Assembly: GCA_037128175.1 (NCBI GenBank)
Contig: JBAXWY010000004.1
Coordinates: forward strand, 1-64,000
DNA: 64,000 nucleotides
Direction of reading: 5' to 3'
Source: Methanothrix sp.
GTDB lineage: Archaea; Halobacteriota; Methanosarcinia; Methanotrichales; Methanotrichaceae
Shown here: in pieces, positions 27,001 through 42,000 of the stretch
Layout: each line of letters begins with the position of its first letter
How positions within the stretch are numbered: position 1 is the first letter of the stretch
Program-made: the position numbers

Positions 27001-30000
27001 CTTAGACCGTACGACCTCTCCGCCCTTTCCCTGGACTGTAACCCCGTCAGCTTCCTCCTTGACAGCAGAGAGATCGAATCCCCCCCATAACTCTACATTG
27101 CCTCCTGCGGATGTTATGGCCAGGTCTACCAGGAAAGCATCAAGCCGGGAACGGTCCACCATATTAATTGGCGCATGTATGCAGAGATTGGGCTTTTCAT
27201 AATCGTAAAGTGATCTGGTCTGAGCTACTCTATTCTCCGTTATAGGGCTCAGGTCCAGGCCGAAGGATTCACCTGTATTTTCGGGAAGGGCCCCTCCGCA
27301 GGCTTTGTGGCGCGGCAGCTTCTCTTTCTCCAATATCGCCACGCTTATCCCGGTCCTGGCTAATCTGCATGCGGCCATCGCGCCCCCGGGACCGGCACCA
27401 ATGATGGCTACATCAACCTTAGCGGACATTATTTGCCACCGAGAAGCACTCCTCTGGCTTAAGCCATCTGTGGTTGAACCGAAGGTAAGCTTTTGCCTCC
27501 AGCGGCATTTCCGGTCGATAAATAAACTTAACGTGGCTGATGTCGCGTTCAAATATGCTTAACAGATCCGGTTGAAGGAGCGATTGTGAAATTATATAGG
27601 ACGGCCATGGAACTGGGCACGAGGTAGGTTCTGTAAATCCCTCCCAGGCAAGCACACCATCACGCTTATCCGGCGAACACAGCCCTGCCTCAACCAGATG
27701 GTCGAGGAGAAATGGCCAGTTGGGTCTTCTGTCTGGCCCTTCTCTACTAAGGCACGACAGCCCGATCTTTGGGCGAATGACCGATCCGATATCTACATGC
27801 ACCAAATTAATGTAGACGCCTAAATGGTCCAACTGCTCAATCAAAGCCTTAAGTTTGCCTTCATCCCAGGACCAGCCAATGTGCTTGAGCAGGGGAATTA
27901 TGCACCCTGAAGACTGAGGGATGAATTCGACGCGAAGGGTCTCAGTTTTGCGTGCCAGCATGGCACCAATATAGATCAGCCTGGCCTCATCAAAGGTGAA
28001 ACAACGGTGTAAGACATCCTGCCAGGGAAATGGCCCAGGCGCGCCGAACTGAATCTGCAATCCTTCGTCCAGAGCTGATTGCTTTTCGGCAGTCAGTCCA
28101 TCTATTTTCAATCTCAAAAAGACGGATGGAAGGCGCGGCCGGCAAGCCGGAGCATCTGCATCGATCTCAAAAAGAATGCTATCCACGGCATCATGGATGG
28201 AAGATGACTGTTCTTGCCATTGAGAGCATAACTTGTGAATCCCAGCCCATTTGGGACTGCCGGATAATCCTGACCCTATAATATGATTCATAAGGATATC
28301 CGGCTCTTCGTTGTCGGTGAGGATTTGCTGGGATAGATCCGCTTGCAAGGTGTTGTCACTTAGGCGGCACTCGATGAGGCCATTGACTATGGGCGGGAGG
28401 GCTCTGGCCATCTCGATCAGCTTCTGGGCGGATGATTCTGATACAAGCACGGGAGAAAGATTAGGGATTAGGACTTGAAGGGAGTCTGCCAGGGTGGGCC
28501 GCATAGATCAATTCACCAGAAACTGATATTCTCAAAAGCCTAATGCCAAAAAATAATGGACTAGCTATTCGTGGATGTGGCACAAGCGGTGCAATGCCCA
28601 TCACTATCCTGCGCCAGGCACCCTCCATCAGTGGCAGACGCCCCAGAATTTCCGGCCACCCTGCATCCTGTGAGCACGTTTTCTTGAGCCAAACCTCTGG
28701 CCACGACAATTAATTTTGGTTTCTTCCATTCGTTCTGCATGCAATATCTCCTCTGATTGATCCCGTTAAGAGCTACTCCAATCTCATGCAACTTCTGCTA
28801 TATTGAATTATCTCCGAGAGACCTGATCTTTTCCCTCCAATCCTCCTATTCAAGAAACTTGAGAAAAAACGATCCAGGGCATAGAATAGAAGCCGGGGAT
28901 GAGGCACTTAAATACTGCCCTACCACACGGATAATCCCAAGTGCCAAAGGCCAAGGGATATAGAGCTAGCTGTTGGAAACATTATCACATTGATTGGTAT
29001 CGTAAAAACAAGCATACCAAACACTATACGCTCCCTCCACACTCTCTGTCTTACACCCTGTTAACACGTTTTCCTCAGCTAAACCTCGTACCACGACAGT
29101 AAGTAGCGGTTTCTTCCATTCTTTCTTCATGTAATATATCCTTTGAATGATCCCAGGTAAGTGCTATTCCAATCTTATGCAACTTCTGCTATATCGAATT
29201 ATCTGCGAAAGATGCTATCTGTATTTTCCCCGGGCTTGAATTATGCTTCGCAAATGGCAAGCCTGTGGGGATGAGGCAACTCTGCCTGCCAATCAGATAA
29301 TATATATTCAGTGCTGGTTCAGAACTCAGTGTGGCGAGGTAAATCATTGGATCTCTCATCTGCAAAGACCATAGGGAAAACTGCATCTGACAATGCTCTC
29401 CGTCTCAAACAGGCCGTAGACCTGGTCTGGAAGAGCGCACCAGGCTGGACCCTGGCAGGCATCGTCCTGATCGTCCTGCAGGGCAGCCTGCCCCTGGCCG
29501 CGCTTTATCTGATGAAGCTGATCGTAGACGGTGTCACCTCCGGGGCCGGCTTTGAGGCGGTCCTGCTCTGGATCGGCCTGGCGGGTGGTGTAGCCCTGTT
29601 GGTGGCTATCTGCAACTCGGCATCGAGTGTTGTCGGTGAAGCCCAATCGATCCTGGTCTCGGACAGCATCCAGGAGATCCTGCACGCCAAATCTGTGGAG
29701 GTCGATCTGGAGTACTACGAGAACCCAAAATACTACGAAATGCTGCATCGTGCCCAACAGGAGGGGCCCAGCAGGCCGACCCAGATCGTGAACGGCCTGC
29801 TTCAGGCGGGACGAAACGGCATATCCCTGGTTGCAGTCTTCGCTCTGATGGTTTCTGTTAACTGGCTGGTGGCCCTGCTCCTCTGTGTTGCCGCCCTGCC
29901 CAGCGCTCTGATCCAGGCCAGATATGCCAGGAAGCTCTACCTCTGGCAGCGCAGTTGCACCAGGAAGGAGAGAGCTGCCTGGTACCGACACTGGCTGCTC

Positions 30001-39000: not shown

Positions 39001-42000
39001 CGGTCAATTCTGGGTGGAGATGGAGCGCGCCCTGCAAGGCCTGCAGGGCCTCGATAAGCAGGTGGTTTTGCATCCATCTCCCGCGCCTCCTATCTCGGCA
39101 GGTTCATTTTTCGGGGGCTCGCTTCCCATTGTCCTCACCGGCAATAGCATGAATCCCTTCCTGCGCTCGGGCGACCTATTGGAGGTCATGCTTCTGAGCC
39201 GTGAGCTTTCGCGTGGCGACGTGATCTACTTCCAGTCTCCCGACGAAGAAGGAATGGTTGTGCATAGAGTCGTGCGCCTCAATGCTACTGGGGCCCAAAC
39301 CCGCGGAGACAACAACCCTACCGATGATCCAAAACAGGTGCCATTCGATGCGATCGTGGGACGGGTAGTCGCGGCCCACCGTGGCCAAAGACGCTTTTGT
39401 GTCCCAGGAGGACGGCAGGGCCTGGCCAGATCTTGCCTGGGAAAAGCCCGGCGTCAGATTCGATCGAGCTTGGCGAGGCTCTTTGGCAGCGCCTACCGCG
39501 GCCTGGCCCGGACGGGATTGGGAAATCGCCTCCTTCCGGTGCCTTTGAGGCCGCGCATGGTGGCATTCGGCTCAACTCCTCGCCAACATTTGAAGCTCGT
39601 CTGTGGCCAAAGCGAGATAGGGCATTATGACGACCGGGCAGGGCAGTGGAAAATCCGGCTACCCTTCCGGCTGATCGTGGATGAATCGGCTCTGGGGCGG
39701 GCAGCCGCTCAGGTGGACGAGGCAAGGACGCAGGCCAGAGACAAGACCCTGGAGAGACTGCGCATGCGTGCCGGCAATGCATAGGCCGAAAAGAATATGC
39801 AGTTATTCGCCCTACCTACGTGCATGTTGGATGAGTTCATCCGTTACACTGCCCTGCAGCGCGATCAAGCTCCTTTGGCCTCTCTATTGATTTACCTGAA
39901 GCGAAAAGGAGGCTATGTTCAGCTCAATCAGATCTGGCGGGAGAATGGACCCACCGGGGGCGGCCCCTTCTGGAACCAGACCACCCTTTTAAACAAGCTG
40001 GACAAGCTGGAGCGCCTGGGGATTGTCAGCATGGAGCGGCGAATTCTGCCCTCGCCCCGCGATGAGGCCAAAAAAAAGACCAACACCTTCTACCGGATAA
40101 GTCCCGAAACACCCCTTTATCCTTACATCTTCGGCATGCTCAAGATCTACCGGGAGGAGCCGGATAAATATTCCTCGGAACTGGTGGAAAAGCCCCTCGA
40201 TCATCTAAGCGATCTGGCAGGCCGCTGTGCCTCCGGCGACCCGCTGGTGGGCCGGGAGCTGGATGTGGCCATGGAGCTGATCGGCGAGGTCTTCTCTGTG
40301 GGAGGCGACGAGGTCAAGAGGATGATCAAGGAGAGGATGGCCAGAAGGGGCATGATCAGGGATCGCAGGAATGAGCTGCCGGAAAATGCCCCCGCAGAAA
40401 TAAAAATAAAGCCGAAGAGGGCCGGGGCAGAGGCAAAAAAATCCACGAAGAAAGAAAAGACGAAACCCATGTCCGAAGAAGAGGATTCAGAGTAGATCGC
40501 TCCACCCTCTCTTTTTCCGATAGATCCTGAGCATCTCCTCCACCGTTTCAGGTGTCACCAATCCTGCGGCAGAGACTGTCTCGTAGAAACGGCGCGGCAC
40601 GCGCACGTTTGAGAGGTCGAATCCCTCCTGTACCTTGAATTTGTACTTTTCCTCAAAGATCCTTTTGCCCAGCTCCATTAGATCATCCTTTGTCTTGACA
40701 ATGCCAACCGTTTCCAAAGAGTCGATGATATTCTCCTCTGTGTAAACGCCGCGAGCAAACAAACAGCCTACCAGGGAGTTGAAAACGCCGCGGGAATTGT
40801 CCTCTTTGATGAGCTCATCAACCATCATCTCTATCTCCATGGGCTTTTTGACGGCCTTCTGGTCGACGGCGTATCCTGCGTTGTCCAGATGAGAGTGGCG
40901 CACACCCACCAGTTGGCCCACGATGGAGGCAGGACCGGTATGGTAGCCGGAGACCTCGTTTCCTCCTAACGCCATGGCGTAATCCAATCCGCCGTACTTT
41001 TTCGCGGCATAGTCCACCCCCCGAGCCAGAGCCCCATAAAATTCATTGGGCGCTTTGACGATATTCTCTAAGGCCCGCGTGTAGCCGTCTACGCCGTTCC
41101 ACTGTAGCGGGACATCCAGGGTCTCTTTGCTGGTGATCAGCCCCTTTTCCAGAGCCTCGGTGGCCCAGGAGAGGACCACTCCCGCCGACATTACATCCAG
41201 GCCCAGCCTCTCGCAGACGTCGATCAGTTGCAGGACTCCTTTCGCTGAGCCCACGCCCAGGTTCGAACCCAGGGAATAGATGGGCTCGTAGTCGTAGGAG
41301 ACCTTTCTTACCTCGAATTCGTGATGACTGGAAAAGGCCGTCTTCAGAGCGGCGATATGCACACAGCCGATGGGGCATCCGGCGCAGGAGAGCCTGCGGA
41401 AGAGGTGGTTTTCTGCAAACATCTCGCCGCTGATATTTTCGCTTTGTGTAAAGCTGGAGAGAAGGAAGTTTTTGGTAGGCAGACCTTTGAGCCAATTCAG
41501 GGCGCTGATGTTCACAGAGGTGCCTATATCATGGTACTTCTCCATGACATCCGTCTGCACCGCGGTCTTGTAGAGCCGATTGTAGACCTCTTTGTAACGC
41601 TTGGCATCCGGAACATCGATCGTCTCCGTTCCTGAGATCACCAGGGCCTTGAGTTTCTTGGAACCGAAAACTGCGCCAAGGCCCAGCCGCCCAAAGTGCC
41701 GGTAGGTGTCCACCACCACGCCCGCGTACCTCACCTTGGCTTCCCCGGCCTGACCGATGCGGATAATGGAGCGCCGACCGACACCGGGCTCGCGATCGCG
41801 CAGGATCACGCCCGTAGTCTGGGCATCGATGCCCCAGATCGATGTGGCGTCCTTGATCTTTACCTCGCCGTCATTTATGGAGATGTAAGAAGGCTGCTCT
41901 GCCTGGCCGCGGATGACCACTGCCTCATGCCCGGCAAACCGCAAGGCCAGAGAGAGCCTGCCTCCAGCATAGGACTCGCCCAATTCTCCAGTAAGCGGCG

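Follow-up and report, generated by a model that had tools for sequence, protein, structure and literature searches.

Candidate precursor peptides for the radical-SAM enzymes of a SynChlorMet-type cassette in Methanothrix

Described systems closest to the cassette

In the linear polyphosphorylated peptide (LPP) clusters of Bacillota (Popov et al. 2026, PMC13381572), experiments have established that a kinase phosphorylates Ser3 of the core and that a peptidase resembling signal peptidase I (SpI) cuts off the leader only when the RRE is present; this chassis alone yields phosphorylated linear peptides there. The LPP leader carries a [Y/W]xxPx[L/V/I/F/A] motif, and that paper describes both LPPs and paeninodins as restricted to Bacillota. 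Phosphorylated lasso peptides of the paeninodin/Bsf type have a related YxxPxL motif ∼17 residues from the cleavage site, together with a discrete PqqD-like RRE, an HprK-like kinase, a nucleotidyltransferase and an ABC exporter (PMC10368454; PMC13381572).

Other described systems rely on radical SAM (rSAM) chemistry. Ranthipeptides and sactipeptides (PapB/freyrasin, CteB/SCIFF, AlbA/subtilosin, StsB) are matured by an rSAM/SPASM enzyme with RRE-type leader recognition, and Cys is the conserved residue of their cores. Freyrasin contains repeated CxxxD rings. Among methanogens, the rSAM/SPASM enzyme CrpC (TIGR04463) of Methanococcus voltae forms thioether (ranthionine) links in a Cys-rich substrate that is encoded alongside (PMC13692751).

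The SynChlorMet (SCM) gene set of NCBIfam/TIGRFAMs consists of ScmC (TIGR04249), ScmD (TIGR04248), ScmE (TIGR04250) and ScmF (TIGR04251). To our knowledge, the TIGRFAMs text for SCM names no precursor, and the lettering from C to F implies that an A and a B had been given out at some time. We found no SCM precursor model in NCBIfam, no mention of 'SynChlorMet' in the literature searched, in line with the preliminary description of this locus, and none of TIGR04248-04251 either. Here, we examined a window of 64,000 nucleotides at the start of a Methanothrix sp. contig, in which five small open reading frames (ORFs) lie between ScmF-like and ScmC-like genes. They are most likely the precursors of an SCM-type RiPP pathway and modified by the enzymes of the cassette.

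Genes of the cassette and their five small neighbours

All genes of the cassette are on the plus strand. It begins with an MsbA-like ABC exporter (29311..31152) that combines permease and ATPase and lacks a C39 peptidase domain (TIGR02203, 300 bits, under the cut-off of 602; ABC_tran, 113 bits; ABC_membrane, 31.7 bits; 57 hydrophobic 19-residue windows), followed by an NTP_transf_5 nucleotidyltransferase (31149..32354; PF14907, 205.7 bits, cut-off 31.2). Two ScmD-like RRE proteins of the PqqD family come next, copy 1 at 32351..32644 (TIGR04248, 50.7 bits; PF05402, 51.3 bits), which also has weaker matches to lasso PqqD chaperones, and copy 2 at 32641..32913 (38.6 and 35.8 bits, respectively); the TIGR04248 cut-off is 100, and the PF14907 and PF05402 matches pass those of Pfam. 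The ScmE-like enzyme (32910..34052) has Radical_SAM and SPASM domains, a CxxxCxxC motif and 373.5 bits to TIGR04250 (cut-off 400), the next family scoring 122.5 bits. Two ScmF-like rSAM/SPASM enzymes, 57% identical to each other, are encoded at 34006..35193 and 35671..36855 (TIGR04251, 343.2 and 307.7 bits, cut-off 400). Downstream of the peptide genes, ScmC, a P-loop kinase of the HprK/PEPCK fold, is fused to a soluble archaeal-type signal peptidase I domain (38216..39784, with the true start probably the ATG at 38243), and both parts score above their cut-offs (TIGR04249, 169.5 bits versus 125; TIGR02228, 55.3 bits versus 51.85). Its predicted structure (pLDDT 87) resembles HprK/P (Z 9.3-10.2) and PEPCK (Z 12-13). 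The peptidase domain contains GNSMNP, HRV and GDN motifs; the S26 domains have such Ser, His and Asp motifs, and a hydrophobic-window scan found no transmembrane segment in them, the ScmC fusion included. The last gene (39797..40495) encodes a 232-aa protein for which no family was found in NCBIfam or Pfam; it possibly belongs to the cassette, and a homologue (398 bits, positions 928-1626) also follows ScmC in the relative L039.

SCM models are thus the best-scoring families for the rSAM, RRE and kinase proteins, with only ScmC above its cut-off. Because ScmE, ScmF and ScmD score under the curated cut-offs, as had been noted before, the cassette is a sister type and not the curated equivalog. 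Compared with the canonical set, it has two ScmD genes, two ScmF genes and the ScmC-peptidase fusion. Its ScmE is 57-63% identical to ScmE of Smithella, Methanoregula, Desulfocapsaceae, Desulfobulbus and Syntrophorhabdaceae; its identity to the canonical ScmE found in its own family is just 39-42%. The canonical cassette that had been reported as split over two further contigs of this genome is indeed there: on contig C57, a 74-aa, five-Cys ORF (2341-2565, minus strand) lies 5' of the genes for ScmC, an S26 peptidase and ScmD and of the segment encoding the N-terminal portion of ScmE, while contig C58 carries the rest of ScmE, then ScmF.

The five ORFs are open on the plus strand at the coordinates first proposed: peptides 1 (35230..35436, 68 aa), 2 (36882..37091, 69 aa), 3 (37191..37406, 71 aa), 4 (37655..37864, 69 aa) and 5 (37964..38173, 69 aa). 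Each has an AGAGGTG ribosome-binding site 7-9 nt before its ATG; for those at 36882 and 37191, a mechanical ORF begins farther upstream, and the ATG retained is the one with this spacing. Public gene calls include the five ORFs and relatives, as 'hypothetical protein' or without name. No Pfam or NCBIfam family matches the five (E<=0.01), as previously stated, and two of them, like the C57 peptide, have no NCBIfam match even at E<=10. Metatranscriptome contigs at least 99% identical to the region (four runs, one study) cover peptides 1 (35225-35644), 3 (37146-37479) and 4 (37572-37898) in full and 2 and 5 in part; being of low depth, without strand and open to DNA carry-over, they give a weak hint of expression.

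The proposed architecture of a conserved leader and a variable core with three Cys 10-11 residues apart agrees with both the alignment and the selection pattern. The leader of ∼35 residues contains Y-E-P-P-x-A-[ML]-R-L-G and ends in G-x-G. The core of ∼33 residues consists of three repeats of 10-11 residues with Cys first in each (positions 37/48/59 in peptide 1), following the pattern C-x3-G-S-G-[DN], then C-x3-G-N-S-A, with the Ser of G-S-G nearly invariant. Of the aligned columns, 22 are invariant in the five peptides, with Y19, P21, P22, L27, three Cys and two Gly among them; across 38 aligned sequences, bacterial ones included, Y19, P22, the three Cys and two Gly remain. In the close family, successive Cys are 10 or 11 residues apart in 82 of 92 intervals, position +4 being Gly in 83% and position +5 Asn or Ser in 81%; the other SCM-linked peptides keep this spacing in 116 of 161 intervals and have Gly at +3 in 80%. 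Counted from the Tyr, the first Cys comes 18 residues later in 31 of 42 peptides. Purifying selection acts on the leader (dN/dS 0.14-0.74 in the 27 computable pairs out of 28, the remaining one being saturated), and the core is hypervariable (pN 0.24-0.60); between peptides 3 and 4, dN/dS reaches 1.4 in the core versus 0.18 in the leader.

Remnants of scmC and scmF separate the peptide genes, among them 5'-end pieces of scmC at 35468..35603 (plus strand; tblastn with ScmC residues 16-62, 53-65% identity), a relic of segmental duplication by its sequence, and at 37403..37504 (plus strand; 74% identical over 34 aa). The five copies therefore appear to have arisen by tandem duplication of a segment comprising the 3' end of scmF, the peptide and the 5' end of scmC.

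Distribution of the peptide family

In the class, ScmE and the peptide each occur in 13 of 392 genomes, 12 of which have both. The co-occurrence reported initially thus holds as a trend, with other counts than the 7 (peptide) and 11 (ScmE) of 250 genomes then given. The single ScmE-positive genome lacking the peptide has a 6.8-kb contig that breaks where the peptide would lie, and the peptide-only genome carries three peptides, ScmF and ScmC on one 8.2-kb contig. At 10 of 14 ScmE loci of the class, the peptide sits between scmF and scmC or just 5' of scmC. Since the profile (A6) was built from class loci, specificity at this level is partly circular, and related genomes are not independent.

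Among 56 ScmE-type loci of species representatives from many bacterial and archaeal phyla, 31 have a related peptide (profile, E<=0.01), which usually comes directly behind scmF, one of these matches being a leader-like fragment only; in 19 loci, the peptide start is at most 250 bp from a scmF or scmE gene of the same orientation. A set of 24 non-SCM rSAM/SPASM control loci (282 kb) gave no peptide match, even at E<=1. Of the 25 loci without a profile match, many are on short contigs, and six hold weak or motif-only candidates; no peptide was found at six Verrucomicrobiota/Kiritimatiellia-type loci of order ScmE-ScmD-ScmF, some of which have ample flanks (L058, L060). The peptide family is much larger than first estimated. 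Against the 80 relatives counted earlier, a word-index search returned 41 proteins (five of them the window's own) and a full profile search 803 cluster representatives at E<=0.001 (106 at E<=1e-10). As before, none of the 803 has a Pfam/NCBIfam family or a name beyond 'hypothetical', and 20 of 20 representatives inspected have both leader and Cys repeats.

These results bear on two readings in which the ORFs would not be ScmE/ScmF substrates. That they are chance frames, untranslated and alike through recent duplication only, draws on the segmental duplications of the region, owing to which similarity among five copies alone proves little; it is nevertheless hardly credible, given the third-codon excess of the ORFs, a leader dN/dS below 1, a peptide frame kept intact next to decayed pieces of scmF and scmC, and the wider family with its recurrent place beside scmF in unrelated phyla and nowhere in the controls. 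We give equally little credence to the peptides serving the neighbouring minus-strand rSAM cluster (∼18.0-29.2 kb), despite its PqqD protein, S26 peptidase, HprK-like domain and three rSAM/SPASM enzymes, as that cluster has four peptides of its own with a W-K-K-P-x-L leader, whereas in relatives the Y-type peptides accompany ScmF and ScmC, including at loci whose flanks lack the second cluster. The original proposal that the five peptides are likely ScmE/ScmF substrates is supported by position, ribosome-binding sites, selection pattern and strict co-location with ScmD/E/F/C in distant phyla.

Proposed maturation and alternative chemistries

By sequence comparison, the leader carries the [Y/W]xxPx[LVIFA] RRE motif of lasso and LPP systems, a likeness new here. 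The cassette has genes matching an LPP-type chassis: RRE, HprK-like kinase, SpI-like leader peptidase, NTP transferase and exporter. As its non-rSAM genes match this chassis, SCM looks like an LPP chassis with two rSAM/SPASM maturases, a link also new here, and the kinase and peptidase, in addition to the rSAM enzymes, probably act on the peptides. ScmC and its S26 domain are likened to LppK/LppS by gene set. LPPs resemble SCM peptides in their leader motif and variable C-terminal part, but have a longer leader consensus (YxxPxVLxHQxIxFETxxS) and cores that are not Cys repeats (PMC13381572); their clusters contain no rSAM enzyme, and radical SAM is nowhere mentioned in that paper. In contrast to paeninodin/Bsf-type clusters, neither a lasso cyclase nor a B2 cysteine protease was found in the cassette (window translation, NCBIfam, Pfam).

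In the pathway that we propose, leader binding and export are drawn from sequence and homology, and the steps between them are inferred. A PqqD-type RRE (ScmD1 and/or ScmD2) would bind the leader motif, and ScmE and ScmF would act on the core. There is perhaps an even chance that they bond the sulfur of each Cys to a carbon in a residue close by, so that every repeat would hold one small thioether ring. The kinase ScmC may then phosphorylate a core Ser, the best candidate being that of G-S-G, and the NTP_transf_5 enzyme may build on this phosphate. The soluble SpI-like domain of the ScmC fusion would cut off the leader in the cytoplasm, with the RRE presenting it, probably after G-x-G, 17 residues from Tyr. 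The product would finally be exported by the MsbA-like transporter.

The one-Cys units of SCM peptides recall the rings of freyrasin. SCM differs from ranthipeptides and sactipeptides in its separate RRE protein, its two maturases, and the presence of a kinase, an NTP transferase and an SpI-like peptidase; its cross-link is a predicted one. Crp belongs to a different rSAM family and acts on a large protein rather than a 70-aa peptide; in its report, PqqD is unmentioned and the sole 'kinase' is a cloning reagent (PMC13692751).

The peptides could also be real precursors whose rSAM enzymes make no Cys thioethers, with C-C or ether cross-links, epimerisation, conversion of Cys to another group, or an LPP-like phosphorylated peptide with a different rSAM decoration instead. 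No characterised rSAM enzyme in NCBIfam is close to those of the window, and the nearest named maturase by score is WgkB (122.5 bits), a Trp-Lys carbon-carbon cross-linker; two distinct rSAM families per cassette would suit two distinct reactions, and the LPP chassis of Bacillota makes linear phosphopeptides by itself (PMC13381572). We consider these chemistries less likely, since from phylum to phylum no side chain but that of Cys is invariant in all repeats, the cores conserve neither an aromatic residue nor a Lys that could form one of the known C-C links, and sactisynthase/ranthipeptide models match too, all weakly (StsB, 92.4 bits against a cut-off of 625; AlbA, 73.7 against 850; PapB, 65.7 against 340). 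A different fate of the product, as an intracellular or cell-surface factor (redox cofactor, metal binder, matrix or sheath component of methanogenic consortia) and not an exported bioactive peptide, is recommended by the origin of PQQ and mycofactocin in related RRE and rSAM/SPASM systems (PqqE and MftC model matches), by the occurrence of the cassette in methanogens and syntrophic bacteria, and by the speculation of the LPP authors on a link to capsule/biofilm loci (PMC13381572). This seems improbable to us, as the cassette here and in most relatives includes a dedicated MsbA-like exporter, and hypervariable cores in tandem copies typify diversifying peptides, whereas cofactor cores are conserved.

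If the peptides are substrates of the cassette, as we favor, the five copies would supply one enzyme set with a small library of different cores, and the orphan SCM enzyme family thereby gains a testable substrate.

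Organisation of the cassette and origin of its five peptide genes

The SynChlorMet (SCM)-type cassette on the plus strand opens with an MsbA-like ABC exporter (29311-31152; MsbA-like match and Pfam ABC domains) and an NTP_transf_5 nucleotidyltransferase (31149-32354; PF14907), followed by two PqqD-family genes (32351-32644 and 32641-32913), a ScmE-like radical SAM/SPASM gene (32910-34052) and a first ScmF-like gene (34006-35193). Small ORF 1 (35230-35436), encoding peptide 1, precedes a second ScmF-like gene (35671-36855), and small ORFs 2-5 (36882-37091, 37191-37406, 37655-37864 and 37964-38173; peptides 2-5) lead to a 522-aa fusion of ScmC with a signal-peptidase-I-like domain (38216-39784). 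The last gene (39797-40495) encodes a Lys/Glu-rich 232-aa protein with no NCBIfam or Pfam match, which is also found 3' of ScmC in the related locus L039 (398 bits). Pfam recognises Radical_SAM, SPASM, PqqD, NTP_transf_5 and ABC domains along the cassette. Against the curated NCBIfam models, ScmE lies below the TIGR04250 equivalog cut-off (373.5 vs 400 bits), this family still being its best by 250 bits. Both ScmF copies are below the TIGR04251 cut-off (343.2 and 307.7 vs 400 bits, in gene order), as are the two ScmD copies for TIGR04248 (50.7 and 38.6 vs 100 bits), both of which pass Pfam PqqD (PF05402). ScmC clears TIGR04249 (169.5 vs 125 bits; profile positions 115-292 matched) and the signal-peptidase domain clears the archaeal-type TIGR02228 (55.3 vs 51.85 bits).

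A conserved leader joined to a diversifying core is the usual signature of a RiPP precursor. An AGAGGTG site stands 7-9 nt 5' of every peptide ATG (5/5), and differences among the five copies accumulate at third codon positions. Nei-Gojobori counts, made on the five copies together with three orthologues taken from two related genomes, put leader dN/dS at 0.14-0.74 in all 27 computable pairs, one further pair being saturated. Core pN ranges from 0.24 to 0.60, and one young pair has a core dN/dS of 1.4 vs 0.18 for the leader. As expected of RiPP precursor genes, they are small, adjoin modifying enzymes and combine a conserved leader with a variable core; they also have conserved residues that are candidates for modification. 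Their coordinates, the AGAGGTG sites and the selection on the leader bear out the preliminary description of five small genes in an SCM-like cassette.

Remnants of the scmC 5' end are found between peptide genes (35468-35603 and 37403-37504), reading frames like the scmF C-terminus precede peptides 3-5, and repeat families span these units. As read from the sequence, the duplicated unit, which is the source of the five copies, consists of the last scmF codons, the peptide gene and the first scmC codons. The peptide frames were kept open while the duplicated enzyme fragments decayed. The scmC remnants also favour the ATG at 38243 as the real start codon of scmC.

Peptide anatomy and association with SCM enzymes

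Y-E-P-P-x-A-[ML]-R-L-G lies within the leader, which ends in G-x-G, and the core carries three Cys, each at the head of one repeat. In an alignment of 38 sequences including bacterial members, Y19, P22, C38, G42, C48, G52 and C59 are invariant (Y-x-x-P being kept in 38/38), while R26, L27, G33, G35, S43 and A55 are nearly so. In the close family, 42 of the 43 given peptides have the motif, consecutive Cys are 10 or 11 residues apart in 82/92 intervals, Gly follows Cys at +4 in 83% and Asn/Ser at +5 in 81%, and the distance from Tyr to the first Cys is 18 residues in 31/42 peptides. Among 48 given peptides that are more distant and SCM-linked, the same spacing holds in 116/161 intervals and Gly occurs at +3 in 80%. 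Two loci from Methanoregula/Methanomicrobiales, L041 (12362-12658 and 13122-13688) and L046 (12504-12839), have their peptides between scmF and scmC on the opposite strand, with 6-7 Cys repeats vs 3.

A full HMMER pass over 1.84 billion representatives retrieved 803 proteins at E<=0.001 and 106 at E<=1e-10, and the leader with C-x3-G-S-G-D / C-x3-G-N-S-A repeats was seen in all 20 representatives inspected. A word-index search gave 41 proteins, five of them the window's own, and the canonical-type peptide profile gave 17; the source names of these matches are absent or 'hypothetical protein', and none has a Pfam domain. The five small ORFs match nothing in NCBIfam or Pfam, two of them nothing in NCBIfam even at E<=10; eight diverse family members match no NCBIfam model at E<=0.01, and the ESM Atlas returned 'hypothetical protein' clusters only. 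The authors of the SCM models are not known to have identified the precursor. In the literature searched, we found no mention of SynChlorMet, the SCM cassette or the TIGR model numbers (Scm names being unrelated acronyms only), nor, among the papers listed, one that names HPr kinase along with radical SAM, PqqD, SPASM and precursor peptide. Scm, HPr and TIGR042 are absent from the main text of a radical SAM compendium, whose supplements may list SCM-type clusters (PMC10288494), as may those of PMC13381572.

Within its own genome, a profile of the five peptides retrieves only those five. The canonical SCM cassette split over the ends of two other contigs, C57 and C58, has its own peptide of 74 aa with five Cys (C57:2341-2565, minus strand), located upstream of ScmC, S26 peptidase, ScmD, ScmE and ScmF; its ScmE is in two halves (189.1 and 357.1 bits, TIGR04250). 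Across the class (392 genomes including this one; ScmE at E<=1e-60, two peptide profiles pooled), ScmE occurs in 13/392 genomes, the peptide in 13/392 and both in 12. The genome with ScmE only has it on a 6.8-kb contig beginning inside the cassette, and the genome with the peptide only holds three peptides, ScmF and ScmC on one 8.2-kb contig. In 10/14 ScmE loci examined, the peptide is flanked by scmF and scmC or lies immediately upstream of scmC. Three of the four peptide-less loci (L029, L031 and L038) are 3.8-6.8-kb contigs ending in or beside the cassette; the fourth (L028) has ScmE and ScmF without ScmC, and the peptide of that genome adjoins ScmC on another contig. As the peptide profile A6 was built from these same loci and the genomes are related rather than independent, the informative part of the class counts is that no peptide match falls away from SCM genes.

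A scan of species representatives with the ScmE alignment widened this view to the best 80 of at least 316 relatives (among at least 600 matched stretches). Divided by ScmE similarity alone, these 80 comprise 56 ScmE-type loci (37-63% identical) and 24 other rSAM/SPASM loci (22-31%). The hosts of the ScmE-type loci in this best-80 set include Methanoregula, Smithella, Desulfobulbus, Syntrophorhabdaceae, Anaerolineae, Verrucomicrobiota, Acidobacteriota and Planctomycetota, among others. A 52-seed peptide profile matches in 31/56 ScmE-type loci at E<=0.01, one match being a 31-residue leader-like fragment, vs 0/24 of the other loci of the same 80 even at E<=1. In 19 loci, no more than 250 bp separate the peptide start from scmF or scmE on the same strand, and six further ScmE-type loci of this set contain weaker or motif-only candidates. 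Within the searched flanks of six others (L053, L055, L056, L058, L059 and L060, from Verrucomicrobiota and Kiritimatiellia), all in the order ScmE-ScmD-ScmF, no recognisable precursor was found; the substrate of such loci may be encoded elsewhere or belong to another family. Some bacterial genomes hold a pair of oppositely oriented SCM-type cassettes within 10 kb, with a peptide for each cassette in L083 and no peptide match found in L076.

In a comparison with loci L040-L046 and L026-L036, the window ScmE (32910-34052) is 57-63% identical to its counterparts in Smithella, Methanoregula, Desulfocapsaceae, Desulfobulbus and Syntrophorhabdaceae vs only 39-42% to the canonical ScmE proteins in its own family, the second copy of the same genome among them, a pattern suggesting that methanogens and syntrophic bacteria exchange the cassette. 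Sequence and homology establish the gene set, the leader motif, the repeat core and the co-location of peptide and enzymes. The preliminary reading of the small genes as precursors linked to ScmE/ScmF stands on the same anatomy and co-location.

A proposed LPP-like chassis combined with radical SAM enzymes

Linear polyphosphorylated peptide (LPP) clusters of Bacillota were described in May 2026, with a leader motif resembling [Y/W]xxPx[L/V/I/F/A], a kinase that places several phosphates onto core Ser3, a Ser/His/Asp peptidase that removes the leader only in the presence of the RRE, and a Tyr or Trp in the motif determining which RRE binds (PMC13381572). The window shares the leader motif, the HprK-like kinase and the peptidase with RRE, ScmC and the S26 domain being likened to LppK and LppS by family. 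The motif is present as Y-[ED]-P-P-x-A in 5/5 peptides. A signal peptidase I of the archaeal type and a discrete RRE are both encoded (TIGR02228 match; PF05402 on two neighbouring genes). The S26 domain displays G-x-S-M-x-P, H-R-[VI] and G-D-N motifs (Ser, His, Asp), with no hydrophobic 19-residue window and no transmembrane segment, and is therefore read as a cytoplasmic, soluble peptidase and not as a membrane signal peptidase; a PDB sequence search with the fusion returned only Sec11 signal peptidases, weakly (E 0.0045-0.011). The ScmC domain model (pLDDT 87.1) matches PEPCK (Z 12-13) and four HprK/P structures (Z 9.3-10.2, residues about 95-280), the next unrelated row being at Z 5.0. An [AG]x4GK[ST] loop is found in the translation, its Gly-Lys being invariant in 13 ScmC sequences. 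By this predicted fold, ScmC is an HprK-like kinase, as in the LPP chassis. The cassette also has matches to an NTP transferase (PF14907) and an MsbA-like exporter, the former a candidate counterpart of LppN, for which the main text of PMC13381572 names no Pfam family. Whereas the LPP product stays linear and that paper mentions no radical SAM enzymes, the window adds core-modifying enzymes in the form of three rSAM/SPASM genes (PMC13381572). With these LPP-type parts, we read SCM as an LPP-type chassis to which two rSAM/SPASM maturases have been added.

On the minus strand (18044-29163), the SCM cassette has a second RiPP-like cluster as its back-to-back neighbour. Its three rSAM/SPASM genes (19899-21101, 21098-23089 and 23100-24266) are below every curated cut-off, the second having an HprK-like P-loop stretch in the C-terminal half of its translation. 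They are accompanied by a fusion of S26 peptidase and GNAT acetyltransferase (24279-25277), a PqqD protein (25280-25612), a geranylgeranyl-reductase-family flavoprotein with a weak QhpG match (26284-27552) and a 361-aa protein without family (27419-28504). Four small minus-strand ORFs on both sides of this cluster (28966-29130, 28561-28791, about 19167-19349 and about 18044-18226) have the common W-type leader W-K-K-P-x-L...R-G-x4-E-x-V-L-x2-C-[KR] and Cys-containing tails. These leaders suggest that the two neighbouring pathways use Trp- and Tyr-type versions of one RRE motif, the situation studied for LPP and paeninodin clusters (PMC13381572).

In the maturation route that we propose, ScmD would bind the leader, and ScmE and ScmF would act on the Cys repeats. 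A complex prediction of both ScmD copies with leader residues 1-40, with alignments as input, reached scores of 0.19 and 0.15, the mark being 0.32, and counts neither way. Sactionine and ranthionine links are made by known rSAM/SPASM enzymes with RREs. Given this precedent and Cys as the sole invariant side chain of each repeat, the product we favour has one thioether per Cys repeat, with the balance close to even. Characterised maturases are all distant, the best named NCBIfam matches being WgkB (122.5 bits), StsB (92.4 vs 625 bits) and PapB (65.7 vs 340 bits); like AlbA (73.7 vs 850 bits), the latter two place the window enzymes far under the cut-offs of ranthipeptide and sactipeptide maturases. 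ScmC would phosphorylate a core Ser, the candidate being the near-invariant Ser of G-S-G. The S26 peptidase could then cut the leader after G-x-G and the ABC protein export the product. Signal peptidases prefer small residues at -1 and -3, and a cut at this point would leave small residues at both positions. It would also put Tyr at -17, where lasso leaders likewise have a Tyr (PMC10368454). The ABC protein lacks a peptidase domain, and cleavage at G-x-G as a C39-peptidase 'double-glycine' site was therefore set aside.

Taken as a whole, SCM could be an undescribed RiPP class, a tentative picture whose entire correctness we consider somewhat improbable. Its product would be a peptide, phosphorylated and possibly also glycosylated, along which each 10-11-residue Cys repeat forms one small thioether ring, and whose leader is removed in the cytoplasm by an RRE-guided, soluble, signal-peptidase-like enzyme. 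Such a system would join the 2026 LPP chassis to ranthi/sactipeptide chemistry and be widespread in and exchanged between methanogens and their syntrophic bacterial partners, with the two neighbouring pathways of the window kept apart by Tyr- vs Trp-type leaders. SCM remains a RiPP pathway of familiar logic.

RNA cover and significance

Four metatranscriptome runs from one study and two samples contain contigs at least 99% identical to the region. Peptides 1, 3 and 4 lie wholly within such pieces (35225-35644, 37146-37479 and 37572-37898, respectively) and peptides 2 and 5 partially, other pieces falling on enzymes and on two small minus-strand ORFs; at the W-type ORFs the covered stretches are 28923-29123 and 28561-28752. 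These contigs are strandless, of depth 2-6 and possibly library DNA, and their cover of the cassette is patchy, its gaps not being taken as silence, so they give only a hint of peptide gene expression.

Measured against the literature found, the new elements are a large and defined family of precursors for an orphan cassette, the repeat architecture of these peptides and a connection with the LPP chassis beyond Bacillota. For ScmE and ScmF, radical SAM families that are curated but orphan, a named candidate substrate opens the reaction to testing by simple co-expression and mass spectrometry. The precursor family, with its 803 representatives, extends over many anaerobic phyla and two domains; having no Pfam or NCBIfam model, it is probably missed by genome annotation and RiPP-mining tools. 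Methane-producing consortia are dominated by Methanothrix-like methanogens and syntrophs. Through the link to the LPP chassis, a system that had been described as confined to Bacillota (PMC13381572) reaches archaea and many Gram-negative phyla, and the link also suggests how this chassis combines with cross-linking enzymes. If exported modified peptides are common to methanogens and syntrophs, they would bear on competition or communication within these communities.
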